Positions 7,822-39,447 of a stretch of DNA of 41,250 nucleotides are shown here, piece after piece. The notes below the pieces were generated by a model. It made no database searches, was not told the origin of the DNA, and was given only the letters and a program-made list of their open reading frames with translations. Each line of letters opens with the position of its first letter. Within the stretch, counting starts at the first letter, position 1. The position numbers and the translations under genes are program-made. The stretch covers positions 62,001-103,250 of the forward strand of contig UYFQ01000621.1 in the NCBI GenBank assembly GCA_900617105.1, read 5' to 3'. Source of the stretch: Hydrurus foetidus (Eukaryota).

Positions 7822-7906
7822 TTTTCTCTCGATGGAGGTTTTATGATTTTAGTCAGTAAAAATCTGACATAATTTCGTATCGAGGCCTCGTGCACAAGTA
7901 TATCGT

Positions 7907-9185: not shown

Positions 9186-9431
9186 CAATCAAATTTAGGT
9201 CGGAAGAAATATCCGTATAGAGGTCCAATGGAAGCAAAGGCCATGAGCGCATTCGTGCAGGACTTCCTTGACGGCAAAGCGAAACGAATTCTCGTGTCGC
9301 AACCGGTCAGTTGGTCAATTACTGTCGAAAGGTTTTTTGAAGACTTTCTCCTCCTCCCCGCGTCTACATTGTCTAGTCCCCCCTCTCCTTATCTTGTAAT
9401 CTTACTACCTCTCCCACTCCAATTCATGTTG

Positions 9432-11353
9432 AAATTCAAATTCAAATTCAAATTCAAATTCAAATTCTAATTCTAATTCTAATTCAAATTCAAATTCAAA
9501 TTCAAATTCAAATTCAAATTCAAATTCAAATTCAAATTCAAATTCAAATTCAAATTCAAATTCAAATTCAAATTCAAATTCAAATTCAAATTCAAATTCA
9601 AATTCAAATTCAAATTCAAATTCAAATTCAAATTCAAATTCAAATTCAAATTCAAATTCAGGTCCAATTCAGATTCAGTTCAGATTCAGATTCAAGTTGA
9701 TTCAAATTCAGATTCAGGATTCAGATTCAGATTCAGATTCAGATTCAGATTCAAATTCAGAGTTCAGATTCAAATTCAGATTCAGATTCAGATTCAAATT
9801 CGATTCAATTCAAATTCAGATTCAGATTCAATTCAAATTCAATTCAAATTCAGATTCAGATTCAAATTCAAATTCTTATTCAAATTCAAATTCAAATCCA
9901 GATTCCGATTCAGATTCAATTCGAATTCAAATTCAGATTCAGAATTCAGATTCAGGTTCAATTCGAATTCGATTCAAATTCAAATTCAAATTCAGATTCA
10001 AATTCAAATTCAAATCCAAATTCAAATTCAAATTCAAATTCAGATTCTAATTCAAATTCAATTCAAATTCAATTCAAATTCAAATTCAAATTCAGATTCA
10101 AATTCAAATTCAGATTCAAATTCAGATTCAAATTCAAATTCCAGATTCGAGTTCGGATTCAAATTCAAATTCAAATTCGAATTCAAATTCAAATTCAAAT
10201 TCCAGATTCAGATTCAGGATTCAGGGATTCCAGATTCGGGATTCGATTCAGATTCAGATTCAGGAATTCAAATTCTGATTCAGATTTAATTCAAGTTTAG
10301 GAGTTCAGGGTTGGGTTTCAAATTAAAGTTCAATTCAGTTTCGAGTTCAGGTTTCCAGGATTTAGGATTCAGTTCGGGTTTCGTTTGGATTCAGAACAGT
10401 TGCAGTTGAGATTCGATTCAAATTCAGATTCAAATCAAATTCAGATTCAATTCAGATTCAATTCAATTCCATTCAAATTCAAATTCAATTCCAATTCAAA
10501 TTCAAATTCAATTCAAATTCAGATTCAAATTCAAATTCAGATTCAATTCAATTCAAGTTGTTCAAATTCGAATTCAAATTCAAATTCAATTCAAATTCAA
10601 GTTCAATTCAAATTCAGATTCAAATTCAATTCAATTCAATTCAAATTCAAATTCAATTCAAATTTAAATTCAAATTCAAATTCAAGTTCAAATTCAAATT
10701 CAATTCAGATTCAAATTCAAATTCAATTCCGGATTCAGATTCTGATTCTGAATTCAATTCAAATTCATGATTCAAATTCAGATTTCAATTCATTCAGATT
10801 CGATTCAATTCAATTAATTCAAATTCAGATTCAAGGATTCAAATTCAATTCAAATTCAAATTCCAATTCAGATTCAAATTCAGATTGATTCAGATTCGAA
10901 TTCAGATTCTGATTCTGATTCAGGATTCAGATTCAGATTCGAATTCAGGATTCAGGATTCAGGATTCGATTCAAATTCAATTCAAATTCAAGATTCAAAT
11001 TCGAATTCAAATCAAATTCTAATTCAATTCAAATTCAAATTCATTCAAATTCAAATTCAAATTCAAATTCAAATTCAAATTCAAATTCAAATTCAAATTC
11101 AAATTCAAATTCAAATTCAAATTCAAATTCAAATTCAAATTCAAATTCAAATTCAAATTCAAATTCAAATTCAAATTCAAATTCAAATTCAAATTCAAAT
11201 TCAAATTCAAATTCAAATTCAAATTCAAATTCAAATTCAAATTCTAATTTAAATTCAAATTCAAATTCAAATTCAAATTCAAATTCAAATTCAAATTCAA
11301 ATTCAAATTCAAATTCAAATTCAAATTCAAATTCAAATTCAAATTCAAATTCA
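9432..11353. repeat. (TTCAAA)n/(TTCAGA)n hexamer satellite, ~1.9 kb
   Basis: Pure TTCAAA at about 9432-9660 and 11043-11353, with a degenerate TTCAGA/G-rich core in between. Confidence 0.98.
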
Positions 11354-17521: not shown

Positions 17522-18779
17522 TATTTACAAATAAAAAACAAGTTATATTGAAAAAAAGCAACAATAAAATCCAAATGTTTTTGAATGAGAAATATTGAAT
17601 CACACAAAATAACATAATTTAATACATTGAAACTTTTATAATGCTATTTATGTTTGCCTGAGGAACTTACTGTAAAATATGAAGGAAATTTGTTGACAAG
17701 AAGATCCAATCGACAAAAACACATAGAGTCTATCTTTATATTTTTCAATGGCAAAAAGTCAAGAAAATACTTACTTACCTAGTTTCCTCTTTTCTCCTCC
17801 TCTTCATCCTCCAATTTCCCATCTCCTCCAATTCTATTTGTGTCCGTTCTCTTATATATATTTTGCCTCAATTCCTTCAATTTGTCGTTTGCCTCCTTAA
17901 TCTATCTATCTATTTTTCTTTTTTTCACACTTTTGCTGTGCTGCGACCCAATCTCACTCGATTATCTGTTTTCACTTTCATTTATTTTTACTTTTTTGTT
18001 TATTGCAACCTTGACGCAATCTAACATTATTGAAAAAACTTGAAATTAGAATTTAGTTTTCCTTCTTCCTATCTTCTCCTTTCCCCTTTTTTCATTTTCA
18101 CTACTCTGAAGTTTTCGAAACTATTTTTTTAATTTTTTCTACATACGTACTTCACTTGCTTATAAATAAATGAAGAGACAATATGCCCCCTGGAACATCA
18201 CATTAGTTCCCTTCATGATCAAAATTCATTTGAAAGAGGAAACGACAAATTAAAGCTTTTCCAAAAGATTTCTTCTTGTCGCGAGTTAAAAAGGAATGAC
18301 TGATTGATTTCCTGAGAGGAACCACTATTTAGTGCTTTGATGCTCCAAGAAGTTGTAACTGCCCTCATCAGTAGTGAAATATTTCTATCAAATAGAGATG
18401 CATGGATGACCATGCGAATCATGAAATTACAAGCAATGTCTCGTTATGCAAAATTAAGTGCCGTCTCCGTCTGACTTCTTGATGACAGCGATTTGAAAAC
18501 GGGACTTAATCTTGAGATAAATAACAAATAAATCAAATGGAAATGAAATAGCCAGTAGTTGTGTTAATCTTCAAGAATGACTCCCTGCGTGCGTTTTGCT
18601 GAAGTAGGGATGAGAAAAAAGAGATCGTTACATTAGAAAAAATGGAGAGATCATTGAAGATCAAAAATCGAAAATCGAGATTGATCACAAACTTTTTTGG
18701 GAAAAAAAAGAAGACTGTGGGACTCAAGCACCATCTAATTGAATGACCTCTCTTTGAATTTTTTAAAATACGTTGTTGG

Positions 18780-19127
18780 TGTTGGGGTTTTCGGCTAATC
18801 CGGTGGATATAGCAACTCCGCGTAACTCGTGACTTGGACCCAAGACTCGTGAAATAAGACTGTATGTTTAATCACTTGATAATTAAACTTGTATCGCTGT
18901 CTCCACACGACGGCAACACAGTCCTTTACAATCATCAAGATCGAATCACACATCAGTCAATGCACAGTATCTTGAACGGACAAAGTCTGTGAAGACTATA
19001 CAGCCAACGGGGTCCCGGCCACTACCCCAAGGGTACACGCCGCTGTCCGTCGGGATCCACGCACACACACACACACACACACACACAACTACTACAGTGT
19101 CTTTTCTCTTTTCCCGATACTCCAACA
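18780..19127 (-). repeat. 3' LTR of Copia 1 (348 bp)
   Basis: TGTTGG...CCAACA termini. Direct repeat of 24110-24459. Contains (CA)n. Confidence 0.95.
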
Positions 19128-19272
19128 CATCCAACAGGCACACAGTAGTTCAGCATGATTTTATGTAAGAGACTCAATAGCAGAAACATAATGAATTGAT
19201 TTGCACAGCAGACACACTCATGTGAATTGATTTGCATAACAGTTAAAATTAATAGCATCATAAAGTTTCGTT

Positions 19273-22200
19273 TTAGATCTTCTCCGCGCGACTCGTCCAT
19301 CCGTTGAGCGCGTCCCTCTCTCTGATGAATTGGGCTCCCTGGAGCGGCTTGGTGAGCACGTTCGCGTACATGTCCTCCGTGCGCAGGTACTCGATTCTCG
19401 CCTCGCCCGTGTCCACTCTCTCCTTCACCCAGAAGTAGCGGATCTGGATGTGTCTTGTACGCTCCACCACCGAGCGTCCACGTCCAATGAGTGCGATGCA
19501 CGACTGGTTGTCCTGCAGGATGGTGACCGGCGGCATTCCATATCCCTGTGACATGAGAAAGTTAGGAATGAAAATCCCCTGGTTCGCAGAGTCTGATAGG
19601 CCCACGAGCTCCGCCTCCGTGCTCGACTTCGTCACTATGAGCTGTTTGCTCGACCTGCAGTGAACCGCTCCTACATCTCCGATGACGATGCAGCTTCCAG
19701 TGTGATACTTCGCATCATGGTGGACACCGTAAGATGCGTCCACGAATATCTTTACAGTGATACCAGCCAGACCCGGCATAAGTACCACGCCGCTGTCCCG
19801 TGTCCCGGCGATGTATCGTATGAGGCGCTGGAGCTTGTCGACGTCGTCGGTGGTGCATTTGGTCACACGAGTGGACAGGTAAGATACCGCAGTGAGGCAC
19901 TCCGGCTTAGTGCGTTTTGCCAGATAGAGCACCATTGCGACGATCTTGTGGAACCATACTCAGGTGGGCTCCGCTACTAACTCTGCATCCTCTCTGTACT
20001 CGAACAGTCCGTCGGTTGCGGGTGATCTGGCTGTACCGCGCACCCCGGATGTGGACACGACCTCATCAGTGTATCCTCGCATGGTGATCTCCGCGCGACC
20101 TGGTGAGGATAGATTCACGGACATACCAAGGTAGTTCGCAACAGGTCCGAGTGCAAGTGTTATCGCACCGTACTTACTCCGCAGCCCATCGACTATGTGA
20201 GTCAACGCCGCCTTGTTCTTGCACATGACGAGGAGGTCGTCTACATGCACTACTGCAGTGCACTGTGATCCGTCTGACCAGACTCGGTTGAACACGCACT
20301 GATCGCATCCGTTCCTCACATACCCCAGATAGCTCATAGTCGTCTTCAAATCATCATACCATAGGCCCGCACTCTCCACACACCCATATAGAGCCTTCTT
20401 GAGGCGCACGCACTCTCCACACACCCATATAGAGCCTTCTTGAACCTCCCTCATCAACGTACTTCTTGTACCTGCCGTCGATGTCTCTGATGAAGTCGGA
20501 CATCGTACGGTCAAGTCGCACGTGCACCGGCACACCCTTCCTCATGTCAGCATTCAAAAATGCCCCCGTGATACCCACCACAGCTACATGACGATGTTCA
20601 TGTGCTGCCACTGCTAGCAAAGTGAACACTGCGCTGGTTGACACCGTCGGTGAGGATAAGTCGTCATACAGTCCCTTGTCTTGCTGGTCCCCCCCAGCTA
20701 CCAGTCGTGCCTTGAGCTTATGGAAGCTCCCGTCTCGATGATTCTTCCTCTTGAGAAACATGGATGATCGCATGATCGCTGATCGCTGTGATGCTGTGAG
20801 CACTGCTCCTGACACCGGTACCCATACCTTCTTGTCTAGCATTTGCTTCAACTCATGAATGATCACCTTACTCGCTGCATCACCCCTAGTTCGCAGCGCC
20901 TCCTTCACGCTGATGTTGGCTGTGTCGCTGTTAGCGAGCTCTGCTCGGTGCCGTTTGAGCACCTCCTCGATGCTGTGCAGTATGGCTGTCGGCCCGGTCG
21001 CGGTTGTACGTACACTCCGGTTGGCAGTAACGAAGGCCCACTCTCCAGTCCGGAAGAACTCGATGACTCGCGGTGGTGGTGATGGTGGTGGTGTGTGCAC
21101 TGCCAGTGCGATCTCCTGCTCAATCGCTGAGTACTCAGCCGGTGGTGGTGATGGTTGCGCTACGTCAGTTGGTATCGCGATCACACCCGGTTCCCCTTGG
21201 GGGATGTGCGGTGATGCGAGTATCGATGGAGGGTAGTCGGTGTCATCCGGTTGAGGCAGTTGAGACTCCATAATACCAAGTCCTAGTCCCACAGGTACCC
21301 CCCCCCCACTTCGTATTGTGAGAGCTCGATGACGCTGTCTGCTCTAGGAAGATCTGCTATGACCGGTTGAGATTGAGGTCCAGTATGTTGGTTTCCCATC
21401 TGACTATTGACAACACCATCCTGAGTGGGGGGGTTGGTAATGAAGAGTGGCATGTTAGATTTGTCGACACTATTTGCAAATAACAGTTCATCAAACACAT
21501 TTGTTTTAGTTTTGGTTATTTTCTTCCCCTCTCGTATGGCCCAGGAGTTCAACATCTGAATGACGGACTGGGGCATGGGTAGGATCTTGAACTGGTCTCG
21601 TGTCACGATTTTGCCAGATGTTAGCGATAGCATTTTGAATGATCCAGTCCGGTTGTGAGTGGGAAGCATCACAATGCAGTCTTCGGTGCGAGATTCCATC
21701 GTGTTATTGGTGTTGGGAACGGTGCATACGGCATAGTCTCCGAATGCCGCACGAAAGTCCAGGGTCCCGTCAACCCGCCGTCCGGGAAAAACTTATCGCC
21801 GCGAAAGACCCCCGGGCCGTGATCCTGATTGCTGACAGTTGATACGAGAGACACAGTATAAGGCAAGCATAGTATTACCCAAGTCAGTCAGCGTAAATGG
21901 AAGTCGTCCGAAAATGTGTGCTCAATACCGTTCTTTAACCATTTGGATTCTACGCTCGATTCTGGCAACATGCCCCCCAGCTGCGCTGATATCAACCTCG
22001 ATCCCAGCAGCCATGAGATTAGGCACGATTTTTCCTATAGCACCTTCCCCGTCGCTCATGATAACTCGGACTGAAAAGTTCCTAGAAGCTAGGGTACGTA
22101 TCATATCATCTAGCGCACCCTTCACCACTGGCGTTGATCGTGAGGGTTTCGAGAAATCTAGTCGTATGAGGCTGCTGGCGAGGATCAAGTCCCGAGGGGT

Positions 22201-24084
22201 AGATACGCCAATCAGTACCGCTGTGTTATCGATGAAGGCAATGTCTACACTTAAGACTTGCTCCACTTGTGCTAGCGCAGGTGTTAGCGAGACGTTCGAC
22301 ACCGCCGTCTTCATTTTAAGCGTTTTGCCTTTCAGGGTGGCAAGACATTTCCCCCATATAGAATGAGCCACTCTGAAATCGTTCTCTGAGACGTTGAAAT
22401 TGTTCCCTCCATGAACCATGGCGATGACCATCTCTACTGGAGGGTATCCCATCCTTCCAAGCAACTCTCGAGCTCTTGCTGCCGATGCTATCTCGCGTTT
22501 TGTGTACCTCATCATGTTGTCGCTAACTGTGTTGACTAGCACCATTTCTTCTCGATGTTTCGTCGGGACTCGCTTGACCATGGTGTCTACGTCGCACACG
22601 TAGAACAGGCCGTCTGATCCTGTGACAGGTTATCTACAGAAGCTGTAGATGTTGCTGCTTCTCCTGGGCTGCAAAGTGAACCGTCCAGCTTGTTGCTCGT
22701 ACTGAATCTTGGCACCCCTATCGACCATGGCGGCAAAGGACAGGATGTTCGCTGTCGCTCCGCGACTGAAATAGACAGGGCTGACTTCCTTAAAGTCTCC
22801 CTCCAGGTCGACTCGAACTGACTTGACGCCGGCCTGGACTCCGTTGAGAAGTATCCCCTGCTTCGACCTCCGGATGTCGGTGAGAAGCCCCCCATTGCAG
22901 AAGACATTTACTGATGCCTGGTTGTCCAAAAGGACGTGACTCCTTGCGAACAGAACGACCTCATGGGTCGCCACGAAAGCCGTCTCTACGGTCCTGTCGT
23001 CGTCGTCTGGTTCTTCTTGAACCTCTGCGACAAGGGCTTGCTCGTCGCTCTTTCGATTCTCACAATCGCGAGCGTAGTGTCCCGCCAAGCCGCAGACAAA
23101 GCAAATCACTGACGATGATTTTTTCTTCGTCGTTGCAGTCTTGCCGTTGTCTTTTTTTCCGTGACCTTTTCCTTTCGTAGGCATTGCCAAATCGGTCTGT
23201 TGCCAAAAACGCGGAATGTTGCTCAGCGCCAAGGGGGACTGCTCCGTTCGCGTTCGTCCATGACGATGCAATCCTGAATGCTCCGGCTAAGGTGGAAGGG
23301 TAGCTATGCGGGAGGTTTTGTACAGCATTGTTACACATCACAGTGAGCATACATGTATACCTTTTCGGGTCAAGTTTGCTCAGGAAATCGATTGCCCTAA
23401 TCGACTCTTCCACGGGTTCCATACCAACACCCTTATTGGCTGACACTTGATTGTCAAATCTGGTCTTGAATTCGCCTATTAGCTCTCGGTCACCCTGACG
23501 AAGGTAGTTGTACCTGAGCGTCTGCTCGTGAACGTTCACCGCACGCATCGAGTCGTCTTCTCCGTACACGTGCGTGAGGTGACTGCGTTTGATGAACTGC
23601 TATAGCCTCACACTATCGAGTTGCATCCTTGCGGCCTCGAACCCAGGTTCCTCGCGCACCTTAGATTGTGACCCAGCTGACATCCTATCCCATATCATTG
23701 GAAACAGCTTTTGCTCATCGACCTTTTGAGCTTCGACAAGCTTTCTCCGTCCTTCGAACGCAGTTTCGCGAGGAATGCGGGTGGATACACCACAGGTACG
23801 ACTGCGGGTACAGGGTCCACCTCTTCATCTTCACCTTCCGCCTCATCGTCAGTATCGACATCATCTGCTGCAGGTGGTGGAGCACTCGGGTTGTAGTCCA
23901 CCTCGCGTGGATACGGTATGAAGTGGCTCACGTCGGTGCTGAAGAACATGCCTGTCATGCGATACAGCGCGCATGCATCGTTTTGCATTTCTTCCATCCA
24001 TTGCACCACGTTGTTGCCTCGTCCTATCTTCAGGATGCAAGGCTCTCTTGCAGACTTGACGACTTCTTGTTTCTTCGGCGGCAT
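19273..24084 (-). pseudogene. Copia 1 gag-pol, split into at least 8 ORF pieces
   Basis: ORFs 23695-24084, 23060-23569, 22630-23271, 21922-22599, 21283-21699, 20354-21292, 19960-20535 and 19273-19935 carry successive domains in different frames. Confidence 0.93.
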
Positions 24085-24099
24085 CTCGATGCGATGATC

Positions 24100-24110
24100 A
24101 GTTTAATTAT
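24100..24110 (-). promoter_or_regulatory. Non-tRNA primer-binding position of Copia 1 (sense ATAATTAAACT), complementary to LTR 24209-24219
   Basis: No TGG-type PBS. An 11-bp perfect inverted repeat with the LTR-internal site is seen directly. The function is inferred. Confidence 0.7.
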
Positions 24111-24459
24111 GTTGGAGTTTTCGGCTAATCCGGTGGATATAGCAACTCCGCGTAACTCGTGACTTGGACCCAAGACTCGTGAAATAAGACTGTATGTTTA
24201 ATCACTTGATAATTAAACTTGTATCGCTGTCTCCACACGACGGCAACACAGTCCTTTACAATCATCAAGATCGAATCACACATCAGTCAATGCACAGTAT
24301 CTTGAACGGACAAAGTCTGTGAAGACTATACAGCCAACGGGGTCCCGGCCACTACCCCAAGGGTACACGCCGCTGTCCGTCGGGATCCACGCACACACAC
24401 ACACACACACACACACAACTACTACTACAGTGTCTTTTCTCTTTTCCCGATACCCAGCA
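24110..24459 (-). repeat. 5' LTR of Copia 1 (350 bp)
   Basis: Identical to 18780-19127 except at terminal positions and one ACT unit. The gag ATG follows after a 25-nt spacer. Confidence 0.95.
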
Positions 24460-24571
24460 GCCAGTCCCAAAACCTCGTGTGGAATCCCAAATCCCCCCCA
24501 CAAAAGTGGAATCGCAATCTCGACCCCAACAGTTGGAATGACTTTTGAAAAGAGTCGCCGGCCGTAGGTGT

Positions 24572-24909
24572 TGTTGACGGATCTTCGGTTTCACATCACG
24601 TACTGCCTCTCGCGGTACAGCTGTTGAAGATCTCTCGGTCAGGGCTCGTGAAATAAGCTTGGTGTAATCAGTAATCACTTGTTAATTGACTGTGCTTCAT
24701 CCCTGCTGAAGTCCCCGAGTCCTTTTCAACGCAACAACAACATTCTCTCATACAATACAGTTGAAGTATTCAGTGACGATGCACGGATCCATTCATCGTC
24801 TTCACGCATGTACGCACACACACACACACACACATAATAATCCGTACGTCCGTACGAATGCATAAGTACACTGATTGTGTTCGTGCCATAAACTCAGATA
24901 TCTCCAACA
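24572..24909 (-). repeat. 3' LTR of Copia 2 (338 bp), preceded in sense orientation by PPT-like ATAGGGGTG
   Basis: TGTTGA...CCAACA termini. Direct repeat of 33608-33959 with a few substitutions and indels. Confidence 0.95.
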
Positions 24910-24976
24910 CACCCCTATGCCGCATCACAATCAACTCTATTCACGCATCACGCATAAGTCTTGAATTAAACATTGT

Positions 24977-27325
24977 CTAAACTACTATCTCTTTGTCCCA
25001 TCCGGTAAGCGCCTGTCTCACCGACTTGAACTGTGCTCCCTGCAACGGCTTGGTCAGTAGGTTCGCATACATGTGTTTAGTCCCCAGGTGCCGCACTCTC
25101 GCTTCTCCTTCGTCCACCCGTACTTGATCGCTATGTGCCGCGTGCGCTCCGCCGCTGACCGCCCTCTCTCGATCAGAGCTATGCAAGACATGTTGTCTTG
25201 GTACACCGTCACTGGCCCGCACGCATGCCCTTGCCCTATGATAAATTGTCTCATGTGTAATGCTTGGTTAGTTGAATCAGAAAGGGCAACTAGCTCCGCC
25301 TCCGTGCTCGACTTGGTCACAATTTGTTGCTTCGCCGACTTCGAGTGCACCGCGCTCAGCTCTCCTACCACTACACAGCTTCCGGTATGGGACTTGCCGT
25401 CGGGATGTACTCCGTACGCTGCATCTATCAGCACGCTGACGCTGATCCCCTGCTTCCCCGGTGCGAAAACCACCCCTCGGTCCTTCGTCGCATTGATGTA
25501 CCTGAGCAGTCGCTCCAGCTTCATCAGATCGTCCGCTGTGCATCTCGTCACTCGGGTCGCGAGAAATGCCAAAGCGGTCATACAGTCGGGCCTCGCACGC
25601 TTCCCGAGGTACAGACCCTTGGCCACCAGGCGGTGGAACCTGACTCGGTCCTCTTCGCTTGTTGGTTCAGCATCATCCCTCGTGTCGAATAGCCCCTCGG
25701 TAGCCGGTGTCCTCGCACCTCCTATCGTCCCGCTCTCCTTCAGCATGTCCTCGACATACCCGGTCATCGACACTCTGGCAACACCTGCGATTGAAAGGTC
25801 GAATACCATACCTAGATAGTTCACTACAGGGCCATCCTTCCTGGTGATATCGCCATACCTCTTTATCAATCCGTTCGCCACCTCTTCAATCATCGCCCCA
25901 TTGACACTGGTGATCATGAGGTCATCGACATGCACGGCAATGGTGCACTGCACCCCATACTCGTCGCTCTTGTTGAAGACACACATGTCGTGCGCGTTCG
26001 GTACATATCCCATGTCCGACAGTCCTCCTCTCAGGTTTTCGTACCACAGGGCTGCCGACTCGACACACCCATACAGGGCTTTGTCAAGCCTCACCACGAC
26101 ACACTCTTTATGGTCCACGAACTGCGAGTAACGCGGAGACAGCTTCGTCATAATGCTCGTCATATTCCTATCCAATCGCATGTGCACCGCGAGCCCGGTT
26201 GTCATGTCCGCGTTCAGGAACGCTCCACTGATATCGATCACCGTGATCCTCCGCGCCTCATGTCCCGCTATGCTCAGTAGCGCGAACACCGAGCTGGTGG
26301 CCACTGTGGGTGCAGATAAGTCATCATACAGGTCACGATCTTGTTGGTTACCTCCTGCGACAAGTCGCGCTTTTAGTTTCTCAAAATCTCCGCTCGCTAG
26401 GAACTTCTCTTTCAGGAACATACTCGACCTGATGATCCTATGTTTCTCTTCCATTGACAGTCCCTTCACGCACACTGGTTCCCACACCTTCTTGTCTATC
26501 ATTTGCTGGAGCTCTTTCTGTATAACGCTCACCGCCGCGTCACCCCTTGTGCGCAGCGCCTCTTTGACTGATATGTTGAACACGTAGTCACCCCACTCTG
26601 CACCGTCCCCTTCGTAGCTGCGAGTTAGCAGTGCTGTCCCGCTCTTCACTCTGAAGAAGTCCATCAGCTCGTGTCTATCTACTCCCCTTCAAGCGCAATT
26701 CTCGGTGCTGCTAGCAATCTCTCCGCACGGTCTAGTGCATTCTTGGGACCTCTGTGGTCATGGTCTATGCCGTCGCCCGCTGTGTAGTCAGCGGGTACTC
26801 CGCTCGAGTCGATATTCTCAATCCCCTTTTCGTCATAGTCTCTCGGTCCAGCACGCATGCGATTCATGTCGTCGACTAAACTATCCATCTCGTAGTCGTG
26901 GCCATGTGGCTGCTCCTGTGGTTCTGGCTCTGGGTACTCAACGATATCTCCATGCAGTTCTACATCGTCCACCGCTGCATCATCACGTTGCCGTCCCGGT
27001 CCGTACTCACCCCCATTGTCGTGCTGTACCTCATCTGTTGTGTCAATGAGGTCGGTGTCTTCATGGATGTCGAGAGGAAGTATCGCTGGGTCGACCCCGT
27101 CATTCACGGTGCTGTTGATCGTGTCGGGGAGATCCGACTTTGGACCGCCGTCTTGCTCGCATGACGTTGGTTTAGCGTATATCTCTCCCTTGCCTTTCGC
27201 TCTCCCGTCAGCGAGCGCAAGCTTGTTAAGGCGCTTAATCACTGACTCTGGCATCGGCAGTATGCGAAACTGATCTCGGTTGACTAGTCTGCCTGTTTTG
27301 AGAGATAACATTCGCACCGACCCGG
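24977..27325 (-). pseudogene. Copia 2 post-integrase spacer, reverse transcriptase and RNase H
   Basis: KARLVAGG, DISGAFL, KALYG, HVDD, IDAAY, TEAE, QDN and MYANLLTKPL motifs. Stop near 26679 and a frameshift near 25110. Confidence 0.93.
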
Positions 27326-27536
27326 TGTGGTCGTACCGGGTATACCGGGCCTACGGGCCGTACCGGACCTCGTCACGATCCACCTGATCCTGCCGCCTAC
27401 AGTACACATACAGCCCTACCACGACTAGCTAGCTAGCTAGCTGCAGCCTACTTTCAGAAGTTACCTAGCTTCTAGCATAGTTGTAACCTAAGCACCACCT
27501 ACTCGTCTACCCGTCTTCTTTCCCATCAGGACTACA
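27326..27536 (+). repeat. 5' LTR of Gypsy copy B (211 bp)
   Basis: TGTGGTC...GACTACA imperfect inverted termini. Homologous to 39448-39653 (reverse strand) and 8144-8174. Confidence 0.9.
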
Positions 27537-28083
27537 ATAGCGCTATTCGTCCAACCTTTCTTCTACTACTTCTCAGTCCATCTACTCGTCCTGAACTTTT
27601 AGATAAGACTTCCTGAGCTATCACTTGTCCGCCACGGCCGACTTCTCTTGCAGCTTCGAGCTCAGAGAACTGTAGTTTAAGTTAGAGAAAGTCAGCATAC
27701 CTGCTTTCTTGGAATCCCTAAGCTTGGGCTCTTCCATTCTTTAAGTTTCCGGTCGAAGTCGAAAGATCCTTCCCGAGATTCATTAAAGATCTGCTCTGAC
27801 GGTCGATTGAATCACGGATTCATCACCGCCGACATAAGATTAGTCAAGAGACGTCTTCTTGTCGCTGAAAAGCAGCAGCATATACCTTAAAAGGTATCCA
27901 CTTTTTCTACCACTCAGAATTTGGCTCTTACGCCATTGGACTTTTCAGTTCAAGAGTTGGTTAGAATTCTCTACTGACGAAACAGTACCCGTTAGCGAAC
28001 AAGGCAAACCCCTTGCAAATTTTTTTTGACAACGGGGGATTGATCTCTGCTGTGTTTAAGCGAGATACATATCTAGTAGCGAT

Positions 28084-29610
28084 ATGTCCGCCGCACCTCC
28101 ATCTCCACCACCTCTTGATGAGGAGGAGATTGCTCGTCTCGCAGCGTTGGCTGCCCTCAATGAGACTATTCCAACCAACAGCTCATTGTTTGGTAACAGC
28201 TCGCTGACGATGCAACTCCAGAGTGAGGTATTCGTGCTCAGACACAACTTCATTGATGAAGCTGATGCCATTGAGTTCTACGAACAGGCTCAACGCAATC
28301 CCAACATGAAGTTGACGGACTGTATGCAGAAGCAGGCTATCGAACTACTGAACTTCAAAATCTTAGTCGACCCTGAATTCAACATCATCGATCGTCGACA
28401 ACGTCATGATTGGTTCACCATATTATCGGTGACTCAGGTAGCCACTCTAGTAGTGAAGTACTTCTGCCCAAACGGTTTGGGGGAGTGTACTTTGGCAGAG
28501 AGTTTTAGTCAAATTCCCTTCCACTACCAGATCGCTAACCACGATCATGAGAATGCCACTTTCATTCGTTACAATGAACTTGTGAACAACTATGAGAGGT
28601 CCAAGGGCCCTCTGACTATGACTCAGCATGCTGAGCTTATTCAGATTTTGGAGAAGCGCCTAGCTAAGGGTAGTCAAATTCAACAAGACTACCTGAGAGC
28701 GAAAGCTGCTGACACCTCACCACCTAACACGTGGACATGGTTAAAGACTATGCTACGCATTGGTCAGGTTCTGGCCGAGGCTAGGTCGATGACGAACCTC
28801 ATCAAGAGCTACGGCAACCCGGAGGTAGTGTACTCGTTCCCTTCATCGGCTATTCCGCCTGAGGTTGGTAAAAAAGAGACAAGCAGAGCAAGTGTTAAGG
28901 CACCCTCACCTACTCCATCCGGGACGTCTAAGTCACTTACAGCGACTGTGCGTACAACAGGCTCGTACATTCCGACTCAGCACGGACTCGCTGTCCGTGC
29001 GTCGACGGAAGTGCCGTTCGTACCGAACTTACTAGCGTGCCGTTCGTGCGGGTCTAAGTCGCACATGTTGTCTGACTGTCCCATCCTGTATTACTCCGAC
29101 TCCAATACAGACCATTCGGCTGATTGGGAGGATTCTACATTGGGTATGGCTTGGGCAGCGGTAGGGTTCGCAGAATGGCAACAGCATCTCGTACTCCCAG
29201 GATACGAAGATCGCGTTCTGCTACTCCCTAAGGGTTCTAAACCCTACTTGATGTCTAACGACAACAAGCGCCCCAAAAACAGCCATGGTGGCGGTAACAA
29301 CCCCAATGCCTCTGGTGGTTCAGATCGTTCCAACCAGGGACAAGGGGGGTATAACCAAAACCAGGGGAACCAAGGTAACCAGGGAGGTGGTTACCATGGC
29401 AACCATGGAGGGGGTAGAGGTAAGCAAAGGGGAGGATACAACCCCAATGCAAACCAAAACCAGGGTCGTGGATCCGGTGGCAGGGGAAACAAATACAACC
29501 CCCACAGGGAAACAACCCTCCCTCCTCCTCCAGTTCAGGTCAGGATCAAGGTAAGAACCTTTATTCTGATGACGTGGCTGCTGTCTTTGACAATGATTCC
29601 CATAATCTGA
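28084..29610 (+). CDS. gag: Gypsy Gag (508 aa) with CCHC knuckle and G/N/Q-rich tail
   Basis: Long open ORF after the LTR and a 547-nt leader. CRSCGSKSHMLSDC zinc knuckle. Homologous to the ORF at 37909-38373 (minus). Confidence 0.88.
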   Translation: MSAAPPSPPPLDEEEIARLAALAALNETIPTNSSLFGNSSLTMQLQSEVFVLRHNFIDEADAIEFYEQAQRNPNMKLTDCMQKQAIELLNFKILVDPEFNIIDRRQRHDWFTILSVTQVATLVVKYFCPNGLGECTLAESFSQIPFHYQIANHDHENATFIRYNELVNNYERSKGPLTMTQHAELIQILEKRLAKGSQIQQDYLRAKAADTSPPNTWTWLKTMLRIGQVLAEARSMTNLIKSYGNPEVVYSFPSSAIPPEVGKKETSRASVKAPSPTPSGTSKSLTATVRTTGSYIPTQHGLAVRASTEVPFVPNLLACRSCGSKSHMLSDCPILYYSDSNTDHSADWEDSTLGMAWAAVGFAEWQQHLVLPGYEDRVLLLPKGSKPYLMSNDNKRPKNSHGGGNNPNASGGSDRSNQGQGGYNQNQGNQGNQGGGYHGNHGGGRGKQRGGYNPNANQNQGRGSGGRGNKYNPHRETTLPPPPVQVRIKVRTFILMTWLLSLTMIPII

Positions 29611-32445
29611 TGGATAGTCATGTTGAAGAACAGCCACATGTAACTATTCGTGAAGAATTTTTGCATAATCCATCTGTCCTTCCTTCTCATCACCTCAACG
29701 TAACTGTTATCGTGCAGGATAAGGATAGGACTGGCCCAGCAAGCGAGCTGCGTGCCGTTGGAAGAGCCGTGCTGGACACCGCGAACTACTCGGAGGATTT
29801 TATTTCTTTTACTATGTTAGAAAAATTAAATGCCACTCACCTTTGTTACCCCGCTCCTACAGCTATCACTGTTTGTAGCGGCCTCGATGGTCAATGTTAT
29901 TTAAATAACGAAATTTGCGATTTAAAAATCCTTTTTCATTCTTACGATGGCGAATGCCAGAGCATCAGCTTACCCATGAGGGTTAATAGGAAAACCGAAA
30001 TTGAAATTTTGTTTAGCCGTAAGACGGTAAATAAATATGATTTTTGGTCTTTGACTCCGTTTGCTTTCGGCATATCGCCAGAACTTAGCGCGGAGAACAA
30101 AAAGAAAAGCGATGCGCGCAAACGCGACTTCGATAAGAAGGAAGCTTTGTTGAAACTTGATCCCATGTATCAACATAAGTATACGCGTCAAATGATAGCG
30201 TTGGGTGCCGAACCAGATACAGCTGAAGTCGAGTCTATCACGCCTCATTATGACAAGCTGAAATATCCAGGCGGTAAACCTGCCTCTAAAAAGAGGGTTA
30301 CATATGGAGTACAAGAGTACCCATATAAGAAGAGCGTTTTGCTTGGTCAATCTTCTTCGAAGAGCAACGTCTCCTGTGTCCATTCAATGTCGACATGTAA
30401 CGATACCCAAAAGGATATTGAGGGAGTAGCTACCCAAAATTCCTGTGGTGATGTAAGTTGTGAGCGACTGAATAGTGTCACTCCTATTCTCGCAAAACGT
30501 ACGGGTGATACACCGCACCTAGGTGGCGACCAGATTCCCACCCTTACACATACCTTTGGGGATTCTGATACCCCCGACTATGTCACTGAGCCTTTATGGC
30601 CCAGTGGTGTCGCACTCTCAGTTGACGAGATTGACGATGGCAAGATAGACACGTTCGCACCCTTCTTAGCTGAGAAACCTAGTCAAGATGACTTGCCCAA
30701 GGGGCCAGAGGATTTCCTCAACGAGATTACCTTTGAGGGAGATGAAAGCTTTCAGAGGAAGCTCCGAGAGCTCTGTTCTGAATATTCAGACATTTTTAGT
30801 GATCAGTTAGCTGAGAAACCAGCGTCACTCAAACCTTTTGAGATTAACATCCCACTTGAGTTGTGGGAAAAAGACGAAAACCGTACGCCGGTACGTCCCC
30901 AGTCATCGACTAAGGAGGTTGCTCTTAAGGAGAATCTCGATGAGATGCTTGCATCAGGGGTTATAGAGCGATCAGATGCCGCTTATTACAGTCATCCTGT
31001 AATCGTAACTAAGTCACCCGGTAAATTTCGAACCTGCATCGATTACCGGCCACTTAATAAGTGCCTGACTCCCGCCTCATTCCCGTTGCCGAATATCAAA
31101 CATCTTTTTGAGAGGATCGGTAATAAAAAACCGGATATTTTTGGTGTGATGGATTTAACCGCGGGTTACCATCAAGCACCGTTACACCCCGCACACCGCA
31201 TATTCACAGCGTTTATATGCTTTGCGGGGGTTTTTCAGTTCACGAGACTGCCCTTTGGTCCGTGTCGTGCCCCCTCTTACTTTCAAGAGCAGATGGTAAC
31301 GGCGGTCCTCTATGGCCTTATCTATCATTGTTGTGAGATGTATCTCGACGATTGTATAGTATATGGCAAGGGTGAAGCAGAGTTTCTTAAGAACTTGAAC
31401 AAAGTCTTTGAAAGATTCAGACTTAAGGGTCTTAGACTCAAAGCAAAAAATGCCGCTTTGGTTTACCTCGTATTGAATACGTTGGCAGAGTGGTTGACAA
31501 AGATGGTTTATCCATGTCAAAAGAAAAAATAGAAACAGTGTTAAACTTTTCTATACCTAAGAACTTAACTTTGTTAAGATCATTCTTAGGATTGGCGAAC
31601 TATTTTCGACAGTTTGTACCGATGCATTCGACTTTGGTTAAACCAATGCAAGATATGATAGATCATTCTGCACCGAAACGTTCGGCCGTTGTATGGACTC
31701 AAGCGAGTACCAACAGCTTTCACGATACACAGATCGCAATATCTCGTTGTCCATTAATGTACTTCATTGATGGCAATAAATTGGATATCAGATTACATAC
31801 AGACGCGTCTGATTTTGGAATCGGTGGTGTCCTTTTCCAAGTGGTTGATACCATTTGGCAACCGATTGCTTTTATAAGCAAATCATTGACACCAACACAA
31901 ATACGGTGGTCAACTATACAGAAAGAAGCGTACGCTATATTCTACTGTTGTACACAACTCGATTATTTAATCAGAGACCGTACATTCACAATCTATACGG
32001 ATCATCTGAACATCACGTATATGAAATAAAACCCTACCTCAATGGTAGCAAGATGGTTCATTGCAATGCAAGAACTTCATTTTACGGTTGTCTTCGTACC
32101 TGGCACGTCAAATGCCTTAGCCGACACATTGTCGCGATTATGCCCAAACTTGACAGAAATTGCATTACCGTTACGAATAACGGAATTGGAATTACTTCCA
32201 ACTTCGTCGTCGTCGGTCACTGTGTCAGCTTTGACAGCTATCGACCCAGCGTCAGACGATCATTTAGAATACATTCAAATGTGCCACAATGCGTTTGTGG
32301 GTCACAATGGTGTAGATCGTACCCTTACTCGGTTGTTTAGTTTACAACAAGTTTGGAAGAACATGAAACAACATGTACGTACGTTCATTCAAAACTGTCC
32401 GTGTTGTCAAAAGTTGAGCGCAAAAGATCCTAAGATCAATGCGTC
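29574..32445 (+). pseudogene. pol: Gypsy Pol (protease LDTA, RT YLDD, RNase H TDASDFGIG, integrase H2C2), -1 frame relative to gag
   Basis: ORFs 29574-31532, 31490-32029 and 32042-32445. A one-base A-run frameshift lies near 31450, and TAA at 32027-32029 corresponds to CAA in copy A. Confidence 0.93.
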
Positions 32446-33582
32446 ATTCGCTAGTCTCTCCTTCGTATTCGCTATCCGATTCCGTCACCGTGACGTGGAC
32501 TTTTTTCACTGACGGTTTTCTCAGAGGGCAGTTCCTCGCGTAGTGACCTTTCTTCTCGCATTTGAAGCATTCGACATCCTCCAAAGATTTCTTGCTTCCC
32601 CCTCCGGCTTTCCCTGCTTTCTTCTCGTTATCCTTGGCCATGGTGACGTGTACTTCTTCGGTAACGTACGCTGCGTTCACCCCTGCCGGTGCTGGCGCGG
32701 GTGTGTGTTTCCCTCGTTCCATTGGTTGGATATGTGGAATGCATCCGGTTTGCGCCTGAGTGCATCATGCTTCATATCATCCATCATGACTTTGAACCTC
32801 CGGGGATCTAGCTTGCCGAGGAAGTCGAGTGCACGTTTGGAGTCGGACACCGCTGCGATCCCCACGGACATGTTCGCCTCCACCTGTTCATCAAATCGAT
32901 TCTTGAATGTGACTAGGTGTTCTCTCTCACCTTGTCTCATAGACGAATACTTATTCTCCTGTTCGTGCTGATTGTATTCTTGTAGTGCCTCGTCTGCACC
33001 AAACATATGAGTCAGGTGGGTCCTCCGAATGAGTGTCCACAGAAGAACGCAGTCCAATGTGAGGTATGCTGTCTTGTACTCCTCTTCCTCCCTAACCCTA
33101 CTCTGTGACATAAGCGACATGCGCTTCCACATCATGGGGAAGACCGTACGTTCGTTCTCGCGTTGGGTCTTGAGGTCTCGCTTCCTCTGGATGAATGCAT
33201 CCTCTTTGAATTTCGCACGCGATTTCTCCAACGCTTTGCGTTTCCTTTCTTTACTCGCCAGCCGCACCGCGGCTCTCACAGCTTTAGCTGCGACTTCGGT
33301 TGCACTCCTCGCAGGCATCTCAGCGCCTGTCGCGTCCGATTCCTCTTCTTCGGTATCGTATTCCGAACTTTCCGATGACGAATCTGAAGGGTAATCCCTG
33401 TGAGATGCTTTCGGGAGTTCGTATCTCTCATTAGTGGTGAAGAACATCCCCACGATTCCGTATAGTTCGGTGACTGTCGTCTGCATGTGTTCTCTCCACT
33501 TGATTATATTGCTGTGTTCGCCGTATTGAAGCGTACACTCTTCTGTACTCTTGAGAGCTTCTACAGCGCGTTTAGGAGGCAT
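32444..33582 (-). pseudogene. gag: Copia 2 gag (MPPKR..., CFKCEKKGHYARNC), frameshifted near 32720-32750
   Basis: Aligns by eye with Copia 1 gag (RQGERE..FKNRFDEQV..ALDFLGKLDPRR). The ATG follows the LTR after a 25-nt spacer. Confidence 0.9.
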
Positions 33583-33597
33583 TGGAAATGCCTATGC

Positions 33598-33607
33598 CAG
33601 TCAATTA
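33598..33607 (-). promoter_or_regulatory. Non-tRNA primer-binding position of Copia 2 (sense TAATTGACTG), complementary to LTR 33720-33729
   Basis: A 10-bp perfect inverted repeat is seen directly. The function is inferred. Confidence 0.7.
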
Positions 33608-33848
33608 TGTTGACGGATCTTCGGTTTCACAGTCACGTGCTGCCTCTCGCGGTACAGCTGTTGAAGATCTCTCGGTCAGGGCTCGTGAAATAAGCTTGGT
33701 GTAATCAGTAATCACTTGTTAATTGACTGTGCTTCATCCCTGCTGAAGTCCCCGAGTCCTTTTCAACGCAACAACAACATTCTCTCATACAATACAGTTG
33801 AAGTATTCAGTGACGATGCACGGATCCATTCATCGTCTTCACGCATGT

Positions 33849-33883
<35 letters not shown>

Positions 33884-33959
33884 ATAATCCGTACGTCCGT
33901 ACGAGTGCATAAGTACACTGATTGTGTTCGTGCAATAAACTCAGATAATATCTCCAACA
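33608..33959 (-). repeat. 5' LTR of Copia 2 (352 bp)
   Basis: Direct repeat of 24572-24909, followed by TSD GGTGT. Confidence 0.95.
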
Positions 33960-34129
33960 GGTGTGCTCTTTTTTGTCGTGCAGAAAAAAAAACTATTTTT
34001 AAAATCGAATCGTAAAAGCTTTCGGCTCACTTCGATCACTCTCGGATTCATTTCGCTTTCCAAGATAACGGCGACAGTGAGGATACGTCTGATTACCACC
34101 GCCTTGCCTACGTGAGGGTGTTCAGCACC

Positions 34130-35182
34130 ATGAGCTTCTTGGGTATCATCGTATCTTTTATCTTGGCAGCTAGCGACAGCAGCTTGCATGCTGCGGCGAC
34201 AGAGGAATCTTACCGCGTTTTGGGATGTCATCAAAGTAGTGTTCTTCAACACTGTCAATCGAAGTTCCCTCAATTATGCAACCACAACTCAGACTGCGTT
34301 CTTCACAAATCGGGAGTTTTTCTGCCTGGCAAAAATCCTTTTGATTACAGTATTACCAACCAAACATGTCCAGTGTTTACTCATGCTGAACCTTCCTGCG
34401 ATACATACGCAAAAGGAGAATTCATTCACGGTTTGTGGAAAACCAAGGGATGCAAAACTTATCAGCCGGACTCCCGATCGTTCCGAAATCATCTTACTGG
34501 AAGGAGAATATTGATGTCTGGTAATAGCATAGTCCGTCAAATTTTCCTACGATTAATTTGGCATGCACGGCACATCCCTGAAATCATTGAGCACTATTTT
34601 CATCATGATGCCTATTACGTATTCAATGGCACTCACGACTACCTCGGAGTGAATGAAAATTATAACAAGAAAACTTGCGTGATACAGAACCCACTTTTCG
34701 TCGCGGAATACCAGTGGAGTGACCAGACGGAATTTTATCAGAACATCGACCTATCAAGTAAATTCGACTTGGTTGTTGTCGGCTACACTTACTACGCCTT
34801 TAATGATACTATGCTGGTGAAGAATATGGAGAATGCTGCCGCAAAACTTGGCAACTCGATAATGTTTCTAACGATGCCTATGGTAGCGTGGAAGGTCACA
34901 CCAAAACCAAACGAAGGAGACGTTAGAGTGGTGAATAAGTGGATAGAACAGAACAGTAAATATCATCTACCACTGAATGAAATGGCGGAAACAAAAGTAT
35001 TCGGGAAAAATCCCGCTGATAATGTACATTTTCAATGCGGTTTTCTAATTCAATTTAAGGATCCTGTCACTGCAAAAGTCAAGATGCCGGCAAATGGTGA
35101 TTGCAGTGATAGAGTCAATCTCAATTTGGCGTTTCTTATGGCAAGACATTTAAGAACATTGCCTTGCAGAAATCATGGGTGA
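34130..35182 (+). CDS. Secreted or membrane-anchored SGNH-fold protein, PC-esterase/TBL-like (putative O-acetyltransferase/esterase), 350 aa, intronless
   Basis: CACC-ATG start, hydrophobic N-terminus (MSFLGIIVSFILAA), Cys-rich stem with G.W...C, GRRILMSGNSIVRQ (GDS-type block) and C-terminal DNVH (DxxH). Confidence 0.78.
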   Translation: MSFLGIIVSFILAASDSSLHAAATEESYRVLGCHQSSVLQHCQSKFPQLCNHNSDCVLHKSGVFLPGKNPFDYSITNQTCPVFTHAEPSCDTYAKGEFIHGLWKTKGCKTYQPDSRSFRNHLTGRRILMSGNSIVRQIFLRLIWHARHIPEIIEHYFHHDAYYVFNGTHDYLGVNENYNKKTCVIQNPLFVAEYQWSDQTEFYQNIDLSSKFDLVVVGYTYYAFNDTMLVKNMENAAAKLGNSIMFLTMPMVAWKVTPKPNEGDVRVVNKWIEQNSKYHLPLNEMAETKVFGKNPADNVHFQCGFLIQFKDPVTAKVKMPANGDCSDRVNLNLAFLMARHLRTLPCRNHG

Positions 35183-36019
35183 TGAGAGAGGAGTGATGAG
35201 AGAGGAGAGATGAGAAATGTTCTGTACCACGATATGCATACTTTACCTGGTGTACCCAATCATTTTTACGACAACGCATTATAGACTTACACTGCACATG
35301 TTTCCTCTCGTTTTTTCTTGGTGAAAAAAATGTCAAACGCAATAATGTTAGCTCGTAAAAGCACCGCATAGTTTTACACCAAAAAAATTAAAATTAAATG
35401 ACTAATGTTGTGCAAACGTTTGATAATAGATAAGATTGTTAGATAGTCGTAGTTTATTATCAAATATACATTTGTCGTTTCTCATTAGGATCGGAGGCGG
35501 CTTTGATTGTTTCAGCAAAACCGAACTGCCTTTCCAAACACTTTTTTTCGTACCACGTAATTTTTAAGAAATGACTTCAACACAAATGTCTTCAAGCATA
35601 AATCATATTACAATTAAAATTGAAGCTGATACAGACAAATATGGTGCAAAACTAAAATTATATTGAATATCCTACCTAGCAAAACAAACATATATAAGTT
35701 GAGGACATTATTTACGTAATTGTAGAAACGCTATCTTTGTTAGCTGCATGCATTTCTAAAATTTGATGACATTTGGAAATCAGAGCATGGAGATTTAGAG
35801 CTGAAATTCTCTCTAACAAAAAATCGCCTAATATACCGTACTCCGTACGCAGAACACAGAACTACTTGAGTAGTATGTACTTCAGTCTTCAGTACACCAA
35901 ATTTCTGTAATATGCGCAGGAACAACGGCAAAATTAATGTTGATAAATGATCTTCAGAACTTTTTCTATCTGTTCTTCTGTGAAACCAAAAAATCTACTA
36001 CTGCTATGTTGTAAATCAT

Positions 36020-36793
36020 CGCTGGAATCTGGGACTGAGTCCGTCTAATTCTGGTACAGGGCTCGCAAAATGACTCTGATTGTCAATCAATTGCTTGTTA
36101 TTTAAACTTGTGACCAATGTCTCCAATCATTTGCCACGACATCTGTTCGAACTGCAACATGGATATCCTGTATTTCTCTAACTAATCTACATACGTCACG
36201 CATTGAAGGTGCCGCGTCGGTTCCGTCAAGGGGACCGCACGCATGTACTTACACCTCGCACTCTATACGGTAGCCATATAACCGGAATATCCAACACACC
36301 CCTATGGCTACTAGAGTTCATAAATCATGTCATTCGGCATATTGCACGTATATTATTGTATTCAAATCAATGCAATTCAAGCAGGTCTTCTCATTCGCAT
36401 CCCGTGAGACACATCCTCTCATACATGAGCTGCGATCCTTGCAGCAACTTGGTTAAGATGTTGGCGTACATCTCCTTTGTATTCTTGTGCACCACCACAG
36501 CTTCCCAGACTGCACTCGTTTACGAATCCAGAAGTTGCGGATCCCGATATGTAGAGTACGTTCCGCTCCGGATCTGCCTCGTTCGACCAAAGCCAAGCAT
36601 GATGTGTTGTCTTGATAGATAGTGGCGGGTTTCATATCGTATCCTTTGGATATCAGGAAGTTTCGTAGGTAGGGTCCCTGATTTGCCGAATCGGATAAGG
36701 TCACCAGCTCCGCTTCAGTACTTGACTTGGTCACGATGCTCTGCTTGATGGACTTGCATTGCACTGCTCCTACATCCCCTATTACCACACGGC
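36020..36793 (-). mobile_element. Copia 3: degenerate 3' LTR (~36020-36296) and RNase H fragment, interrupted by Gypsy D
   Basis: VIGDVGAV..KQSIVTKSSTEAELV..SDSANQ..YQDN..MYANIL. The junction CCAACA|CACCCCTAT is the same as in Copia 2, and LTR motifs are shared with Copia 1 and 2. Confidence 0.85.
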
Positions 36794-39447
36794 TGTGGCC
36801 TCACTAGGATCTGGGCACGGGGGACAGGACAGCTGGGAGCGGGGGCAAGGGAAAGTGGGTTGCAGGAGCTAGTGCTATGGATAGCAATGTGGTTAGCTTA
36901 CAGATAAACACAGCAGGTATCAAGCAATGAATCGTGTGGATCGATCCGATCCGAACATACGCCTGTACCCGTACAGCCCGTACGGGTGTGCGGGTCACAG
37001 TGCCCCTCTCACTCGAAAGGGGTGAACTAACTAACAAAATTCATCATCAAAATACTAACTATGAATAACTAACTAAGTCGTTGAATAACTATTTCAGACT
37101 AAGAACTGAAAGTTCCTTACTGAATAAACCTCCCGAAAATCCCTGAGGATCCAATGTAGGAGGAATCTTTATGATGTAGTTAATCAATTTTGCTTTACCG
37201 GTTAACGGTAGTTTGCGATGAATTCTCGTGGTATCAAGTGTTTGAGGTTCTTTTTGATCAAGAACTCGTCTACTTTTTGCGATTTACGCATGTGTATTCA
37301 CGATTCCCATATGTTGTGTTCTTGAGTGTAGTTAAGCCACTTCACATAAAATGTGAGCGATTTGTATGCCCTTATGTTTCCTTTCATGTCTAGGATTTCC
37401 TCAATTAAGAATTCTAGATAATCTCTACGAGCGATGTCAGTTGGATCGACATGTGTAGGATCAAAGTGAAACGGTTTTAGTTGTGTCATGTGATACAACT
37501 TTTCTTTGTGTGTTACCAGATCGAGTAATGTATACTCTGCGAAGTTGTGACTGACGACTCGCATTGAGCCACGCAACAGTGTGTGCATGCGTGTTTCTGG
37601 TGTTGTTCTTTGTTGCACGAGCACAAATGTGTCGACTCCGAACTGTGTGACGTTGGGAGATTATTGTGCATTGTGCAGCGTTTTCTTTTGAACAGGTCCC
37701 CGAAAGCCGCTACATGTGACTGTAGCTGTCGCACCACGTTGACCTGGGAGAAGAAGCGACGCATCGCAAACTCTTAATCGTCCACGTCTTGTGGATTAAC
37801 GCGCTTATGTTCCTTATACTTGGCGGTGATGGCACCGTTAAGTGGCATCTTTTTCTCCCAGATAAGAGTAAGTGCCGCATGGTCTGAGGTGCTGAGTATG
37901 CCATGTACTTATACATGGTTCTCGACGACCTCACGAAATTGAGTCATGCAGCGCATCTCGACCTCCCTTTTGTTATAACAGAAGGCGAGATGCACTTCTG
38001 AGAAATGCTCTGCCAATGACTGTCCTAGCTGTGTATCAGCGCGGAAGTAGCGGAGGACTAGTGCCGCTACTTGAGGAACAGTCAAGGTTTGGAGCCACAC
38101 CTTACGTGTTTCCTCTGGGTATGGATAATCTTGATCCGTATGGATCTGGTCATCGATGCACCTGACTGCTTTGGTCGAGATGACTTGACCAACATCATAG
38201 TTGTTGGTCCATCTCTGGGAGTATTCATAAAACTCCCGAGCTGCCTCCTGTCCGATAATGCCTGATGCATTCATGTTGAGAACGTGAAGAACCGTCTGTA
38301 GGGCAATAGCGGAGATAGGTCGTGAACCGTCATCCACAGCACAGCCACCCACCACAAGTGCTGTAGAGGCCACACTAGGTGTGGCAAACTGTACAATGGG
38401 TACATTGATCGGTGACGTACGATCGTGTATGTACTGTGGTATCGGCGGTCGTACCGGGCGAGCTGACCGCCCCCTGCAGCTTGCACTCGGAACGCTGCCG
38501 TTTGGAGCTCGTAATCGATAAAATGATCAGTTGCGGGCAGCACCACGATCTCTGGAGGGGGTTAGGAACCCGGGTATCCCTTGGGATCTCCTGGATTTCC
38601 CGCTGGGGCTGCGGATTATAATCCGTGTCACCGGTGAACGTACGTGCGTACGTTGGGCGTTCCGGTGACCCTAGTGGAGAAGCTTATCGCTTGTGTGACG
38701 TGAGACCCTCTTTGGGAGGTGACGCGCGTCTGCGAGAAGCGTCCGATGTGCGGGTTAGTGTCCCAACGTTGTCGGGAATGTGCGTGTCGCGACTCTCGAG
38801 CAACCTAGAGTTGTCGGTACCGCGTACGGTCGTACGTGGCGTCATGCGACTCTCATTCGCACGTTCCCCCTCGTACCGGTTGTCGTTGTACTGACGCCCG
38901 TCGGTATTACGATTGCCCCTGTTGCAGGTATCTTGATGACGACGATCGTCATTTTGATGATATTCCCTTGGGGGGCTGTCATCGTAACCCTGTGGGGGTT
39001 CCTTACGACCTCACCTGTTGGAGTTACCATCTTCCTGACGGAAGTTGTCGTTGGCGTCGTCTCGAGAGTTATCGAAATTACGATTATTCGTCGAATAATT
39101 TCCTCTGTTCGAGTTGTCATTACGACGAGAATCCTCGTAGTTACAATTATCCCTCTGGGGTTATCACTGTGACGATGGAATGTGTCTCTGTGGTTATCCC
39201 TGTTAGGGTCGTTGTCTTGTTGACGATGGTCGTTTTCGCGACGCCCGTGTTGTCGTCGTTGCGACGATTGTTGTTGTTTCGTCGATCGTCGTATTGACGT
39301 CTGTTATCGTCGTTGAACTGGTTGTCGTTACCTCGACGTCCATCGTTGTCGTAGGCATGACTATCGTCATTCTGACGGTAATTGTCGTCATAACGACGAT
39401 TGTCGCTCTGACGTTGATTGTCGTCATTGCGGCGATCATCATTATAC
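36794..39447 (-). mobile_element. Gypsy chromovirus copy D (second family), internally deleted: gag remnant joined to integrase C-terminus/chromodomain, PPT and 3' LTR
   Basis: LTR 36794-36999 (TGTGGCC...GGTCACA), PPT GAGTGAGAGGGG at about 37003-37014, chromodomain EFLIEEILD..FYVKWLNY..HNIWE (37298-37624) and a gag homolog (37909-38373). No PR, RT or RNase H lies between them. Confidence 0.85.

Follow-up and report, generated by a model that had tools for sequence, protein, structure and literature searches.

The two Ty1/copia retrotransposons analyzed here, together with the lineage to which they belong, very probably use the leading end of their own RNA rather than a host tRNA to prime reverse transcription. 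Both elements (Copia 1 and Copia 2) lie in a 41,250-nt stretch of DNA from Hydrurus foetidus, which was analyzed as a whole and is called the window below. [quoted passage not shown] An earlier, sequence-only reading of the window had already proposed self-priming and had implied that it would be new for Copia elements. The proposal itself is strengthened by these observations, all of them indirect, but its implied novelty did not survive, because self-priming has been predicted before for the plant TAR lineage (PMC6317226).

Copia 1 and Copia 2 are arranged head to tail on the minus strand, and each has a TG...CA LTR pair and a 5-bp target-site duplication. Copia 1 spans 24531-18780 and is flanked by CCAAC (24536-24532 and 18779-18775, read from the sequence); Copia 2 spans 33959-24572 and is flanked by ACACC (33964-33960 and 24571-24567). 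The 5' LTR of Copia 1 (24110-24531) was delimited by an LTR-LTR match that runs to 24110/18780 and by the target-site duplication. Over the part common to both LTRs, which in the 5' LTR is 24453-24110, it agrees with the 3' LTR (18780-19127) at 340 of 341 aligned bases. The 5' LTR of Copia 2 (33608-33959), delimited in the same way, agrees with its 3' LTR (24572-24909) at 335 of 338 aligned bases. Because the LTR pairs are so nearly identical, both insertions appear to be young, although the coding regions of both are broken.

The gag-PR-IN-RT-RH coding region of Copia 1 (19273-24084, minus strand) is interrupted by several stops and frameshifts. Copia 2 has a first open frame for gag (32677-33582) and an RT-RNase H frame (25054-26664; Pfam RVT_2, 86 bits), both on the minus strand. 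It lacks roughly residues 350-795 of an intact relative (P0187; 1,514 amino acids in one frame), and the gap is occupied by a plus-strand Gypsy fragment (27326-32445) that stands in place of the protease and most of the integrase. A piece of Copia 1 likewise matches RVT_2 (37 bits), and a tblastn search with P0187 places gag, PR-IN and RT-RH along Copia 1 in the Ty1/copia order. By domain order, RVT_2 and LTR/target-site duplication structure, Copia 1 and Copia 2 are Ty1/copia LTR retrotransposons, and their RT-RH regions share 57% identity. A third copy of the lineage, truncated at its 5' side, retains the RNase H end and a 3' LTR (36296-36007) at 36007-36800 on the minus strand.

The window holds several further features. 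The two LTRs of Copia 1 are unequal in that the first ~78 nt of the 5' LTR (24531-24454) are absent from the 3' LTR (compare 19127-19120), and the 3' LTR is without the GGGGTG-type purine tract that Copia 2 has, yet Copia 1 as a whole is still flanked by its target duplication. A recombination or an assembly join may lie behind this mismatch. Sequencing-run contigs cover the Gypsy fragment about a hundred times as deeply as the Copia coding regions, which suggests a member of a very abundant family; no inverted repeat longer than 8 nt was found in the first 775 nt of this nested element. Eight tandem copies of a Gypsy integrase piece of ~653 nt, 95-100% alike, lie at 2064-7486, a 206-nt inverted repeat lies at 7899-8374, and long simple-repeat arrays with 14-nt and 6-nt units lie at 8169-11350. 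An intronless host gene of 350 amino acids (34130-35182) has no Pfam matches, and its Atlas look-alikes include PC-esterase-like clusters. There are no tRNA genes in the window and no Rfam match in 18500-37000, and a search for PDB relatives returned none.

Each Copia copy was claimed to carry, at its PBS position, a perfect complement of its own LTR, and this was borne out. In Copia 1, ATAATTAAACT (24110-24100), which takes in the last A of the LTR, is the exact 11-base complement of AGTTTAATTAT (24219-24209). In Copia 2, TAATTGACTG (33607-33598), which is flush with the LTR end at 33608, is the exact 10-base complement of CAGTCAATTA (33729-33720). All four sites are given on the minus strand. 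The site within the LTR (arm 1) is the predicted self-primer; it is preceded by CA and lies about 110-120 nt upstream of the PBS position (arm 2) in both copies. We assessed chance by dinucleotide shuffles of the LTR, accepting a complement to any part of a 23-nt boundary region, and an equally long complement arose in 7 of 5,000 shuffles for Copia 1 and 10 of 5,000 for Copia 2. The arm 1 sites occupy homologous positions in their LTRs, and the sequence behind each is shared. Between the two copies the arms differ by one substitution and one single-base indel, and the PBS mirrors both. TGG is absent after the LTR in Copia 1 and Copia 2, as had also been stated. The spacing of 25 nt between LTR end and gag ATG was correct for both window copies but fails as a feature of the lineage; from helix start to first ATG the distance varies from 9 to 205 nt in the 38 elements defined below.

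When folds were begun at the arm, the long helix had a probability of 0.99 in Copia 2 and 0.64-0.81 in Copia 1. In Copia 1 this helix is weak (duplex -7.6 kcal/mol), and in the minimum-energy fold a local hairpin wins over it, although the ensemble still favors the long helix. In both copies a partial PBS copy just downstream (24218-24198 and 33729-33706) offers arm 1 a second pairing partner, which gives this local hairpin. In Copia 1, where hairpin and long helix compete, the hairpin could act as a switch. Among the sequencing-run contigs there is a one-base insertion variant at 24099, unphased with its LTR.

The covariation between PBS and LTR extends to related Copia families. An RT-alignment scan of metagenome contigs, covering 12 of the 64 parts of the collection, provided 77 loci from the best 80 of 484 confirmed matches. 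The testable set comprised the 46 loci with a gag match and at least 150 nt upstream; the 31 without these were left out. At each locus we searched blindly for the longest perfect complement from near any possible LTR end, ran the same search on 100 shuffles of that locus, and scored a pass when no more than 5 of the 100 shuffles matched the result. With an NACA end rule 30 of the 46 loci passed, and a looser CA rule, introduced later, let 32 pass; the union is 33 of 46, with PBS letters that differ among families. Many of these relatives are collapsed metagenome contigs, and their LTR ends were set by motif rather than by two flanked LTRs. A gag scan of the metagenome contigs gave no matches; viral contigs, examined with one LTR motif scan and four protein scans, gave none either.

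Inspection of the 13 non-passing loci, carried out after the fact, yielded six more helices, three weak cases, three loci without a junction and one negative. Three of the additional helices (L026, L028 and L051, with 14, 11 and 18 perfect pairs) lie at ends that the end rules had missed, two (L004 and L073, with 14 and 15 pairs) form against the element's own 3' LTR, and one (L052) has 15 pairs of which two are G-U. The weak cases (L007, L014 and L017) reach only 9-10 pairs with bulges, the junction is absent in L015, L055 and L077, and no complement was seen in L023. Helix-positive loci are spread over the whole of a midpoint-rooted RT tree, in which pairwise identity is 32-93% (median, 41%); the 77 rows of this tree either have 330 or more aligned residues or entered it as proteins, and it was built without outside references. 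Three loci of one RT clade (L025, L026 and L028; support of 0.99 with L062, L076 and L037) have LTRs that appear to carry CG at the start and ACG at the end in place of TG...CA, and their inverted termini match. On three other contigs (L003, L036 and L039), whole elements stand in tandem, head to tail, with LTRs in common.

Thirty-six loci with a perfect helix in cis and the two window copies make up a set of 38 elements. Their helices are 10-19 bp long and enclose loops of 46-200 nt, and TGG was found in none of them. Of the 38 folds begun at the arm, 37 give the helix a probability above 0.5; in the remaining fold, that of L001, it is absent (0.0). Past the helix ends, pairing is at background (75 of 266 outward and 66 of 266 inward). 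That no G-U pairs occur directly beyond the helix was considered as evidence and dropped, since the C and A found there cannot wobble. A U5 stem next to the PBS appears in some folds (mean z of -0.85, with 17 of 38 below -1; -0.91 in Copia 1 and +1.24 in Copia 2), but clear conservation across the lineage of a U5 stem of the Tf1 type was not seen. In L001, L002 and L007, splice-donor-like and acceptor-like motifs flank the PBS, and a spliced RNA would lose the PBS; this arrangement is not general. An intron across the PBS, an idea suggested by L001 and L002, was rejected on a count of donor motifs in 5 of 38 R-U5 loops versus 2 of 38 upstream stretches.

Another function can be imagined for such a helix. 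It might be an RNA structural element that serves packaging, dimer formation or translation control, with a host tRNA or tRNA fragment priming elsewhere or in pieces. There is a precedent in the fungal GalEa Copia elements, which carry a conserved hairpin at the PBS position for which no model is reported to be known (PMC5445492). However, the helix in the present lineage sits exactly where a primer must end: relative to the LTR end, its starting offset is -1 or 0 in 35 of the 38 elements. Furthermore, the 38 PBS sequences are all distinct and the helices are 85% A-U (79 of 520 pairs are G-C), and they have no fixed tRNA-like word in common. A G-U tolerant search lengthened none of the recovered helices and rescued only L052, and the outer end of the helix stops at an initiator-like motif. 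Given this evidence, we consider a purely structural role improbable, though it fares better than the other alternatives to self-priming discussed below.

The initiator-like motif came out of a search that did not use any promoter motif. TCA, whose A is either the first base of the pairing or its immediate predecessor, is found in 26 of the 33 blind positives versus 1.2 expected, and it stands at the helix outer end in 28 of the 38 elements. Among clusters below 60% RT identity, 22 of 30 have TCA at the outer end, compared with a mean of 1.1 and a maximum of 4 in 72 shifted controls. Around diatom start sites, the initiator-like motifs TCAH(+1)W and CAY(+1)A have been described (PMC4686930). 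The enrichment of TCA lends indirect support to a transcription start at the helix outer end, which is predicted to be at 24221-24219 in Copia 1 and 33729-33728 in Copia 2. The motif is degenerate in both window copies, which read ACA|A and GCA|C rather than TCA and keep only the CA before the arm. In the third, truncated copy, TCA at 36113 is followed by an arm 1 homolog, and its PBS lies outside the window. Contigs from one RNA run with a small share and from three runs of a single study were aligned to 18600-34100 and showed no start sites, which contigs are unable to reveal. One RNA contig covers 33646-33838, across the predicted Copia 2 start, and its source may be the 3' LTR or DNA.

We also tried each PBS on the LTR of every other element. 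The longest match averaged 5.9 nt over the 1,406 foreign pairs, compared with 10-19 nt on the element's own LTR. The own LTR was the strict best partner for 33 of 38 elements, a figure that measures specificity only, as the 38 were chosen for their own match. This specificity is relevant to a scenario in which a host small RNA primes at the PBS and the site in the LTR is a mere copy that an aberrant strand transfer left behind. Copia 1, Copia 2, L001 and L002 have the first five bases of the PBS in common, which would suit a shared host primer. Across the lineage, however, the letters and the length of the PBS (10-19 nt) vary completely and yet track the element's own LTR, and a strand-transfer copy would be expected as a direct repeat that is not tied to an initiator. 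A host small RNA is thus a very unlikely primer. Chance matching of short, A+T-rich arms, for which one could cite the 16 of 1,406 foreign pairs that reach at least 10 nt (several of them between close families), has next to no probability in view of the shuffles of the window LTRs, the TCA enrichment and the preference for the own LTR, and for the lineage it is refuted by the 33 blind positives.

If self-priming is correct, the steps might be as follows. RNA polymerase II would start at the initiator-like motif, and the first 10-11 nt of the transcript would fold onto the PBS, with ~100-110 nt of R-U5 looped out. The element's RNase H would then cut right behind the paired stretch, in the fashion of Tf1, leaving a 3'-OH primer from which minus-strand strong-stop DNA would be synthesized. 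During plus-strand synthesis the primer would itself be copied, and the PBS would thus be re-templated from the LTR in every cycle. This re-templating would explain how the letters can drift freely while the match stays exact. We infer this sequence of transcription, fold-back, cleavage and extension by analogy with Tf1.

Tf1 and Tf2 of Schizosaccharomyces pombe, Tj1 of S. japonicus and the Tf1/sushi elements resemble Copia 1 and Copia 2 in having a PBS complementary to their own sequence, which is the 5' RNA end in the Tf1 group and a predicted 5' end here. The Tf1 self-primer is reportedly not removed. In Tf1, pairing with the PBS involves the first 11 bases, and the RNase H cut falls between bases 11 and 12 (PMC7175516; PMC4600332). 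The pairing of ~11 bases in Tf1 compares with 10-19 nt predicted from the sequences of the present lineage. Tf1 is a Ty3/gypsy element, whereas Copia 1 and Copia 2 have IN before RT and match RVT_2; the Ty3/gypsy order and RT by which Tf1/sushi elements are recognized were not found in them.

A nearer counterpart is the plant Ty1/copia lineage TAR, in which self-priming has been predicted for 89% of 203 elements by requiring at least 10 bp of pairing that starts 0-5 bp from the LTR end (PMC6317226). Self-priming of Houba and Osr-1 had been proposed earlier (Capy 2005, as cited in PMC6317226). TAR and the present lineage are alike in being Copia, in a prediction of self-priming by nearly the same criterion, in a single gag-pol frame and in a 5-bp target duplication. 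Their LTRs differ in length, with ~965 bp in Houba/Osr1 (PMC1940013) versus 290-420 in the present lineage. Among plant Copia integrases, 5,343 of 5,410 match pfam00665 below 1e-10 by CD-search (PMC6317226), while in hmmscan, a different program, none of five intact relatives matched PF00665, PF14223 or PF13976 at E 0.1. By Pfam profile and shorter LTRs, the present lineage looks distinct from plant Copia and TAR. Its RT motifs may resemble those of the diatom CoDi elements. CoDiI, CoDiII and CoDi6, compared here by description only, are likewise divergent, non-plant Copia, and CoDiI and CoDiII have been placed far from the main Copia lineage (PMC2806351). The main text of that report makes no mention of tRNA or self-priming. 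Fungal GalEa elements are also Copia without a tRNA PBS (PMC5445492), as the present elements are without TGG; in GalEa, however, the site is conserved in sequence and the authors reportedly found no complement in the LTR (PMC5445492), whereas here the site varies and its complement lies in the LTR.

Self-priming Copia elements are not new as a prediction, and this non-plant lineage was not found in print. No report of self-priming in Copia of diatoms or other protists was found in the literature searched, which comprised few subscription papers and neither Repbase nor GyDB. On balance, we favor a broader view in which aquatic microbial eukaryotes carry a large, deep-branching Copia lineage whose members all self-prime, the primer length of 10-19 nt being set by how far the RNase H cut lies from the initiator. 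In this same view, the lineage either gained self-priming independently of Tf1/sushi and plant TAR or retained it from a common ancestor of LTR elements as a whole.

If self-priming is true, these elements would represent a further and probably separate occurrence of tRNA-free priming, in Copia far from the plant elements. It has been suggested that the precursors of LTR elements were self-primed and that tRNA priming came late (PMC3601003), and the present lineage would bear on this idea if it roots deep in Copia. The helix also predicts the transcription start of every element to within two bases. LTR finders that require a tRNA PBS would presumably miss such elements. Finally, freedom from host tRNA could make passage from one host to another easier for such retrotransposons, and tRNA fragments would no longer restrain them.
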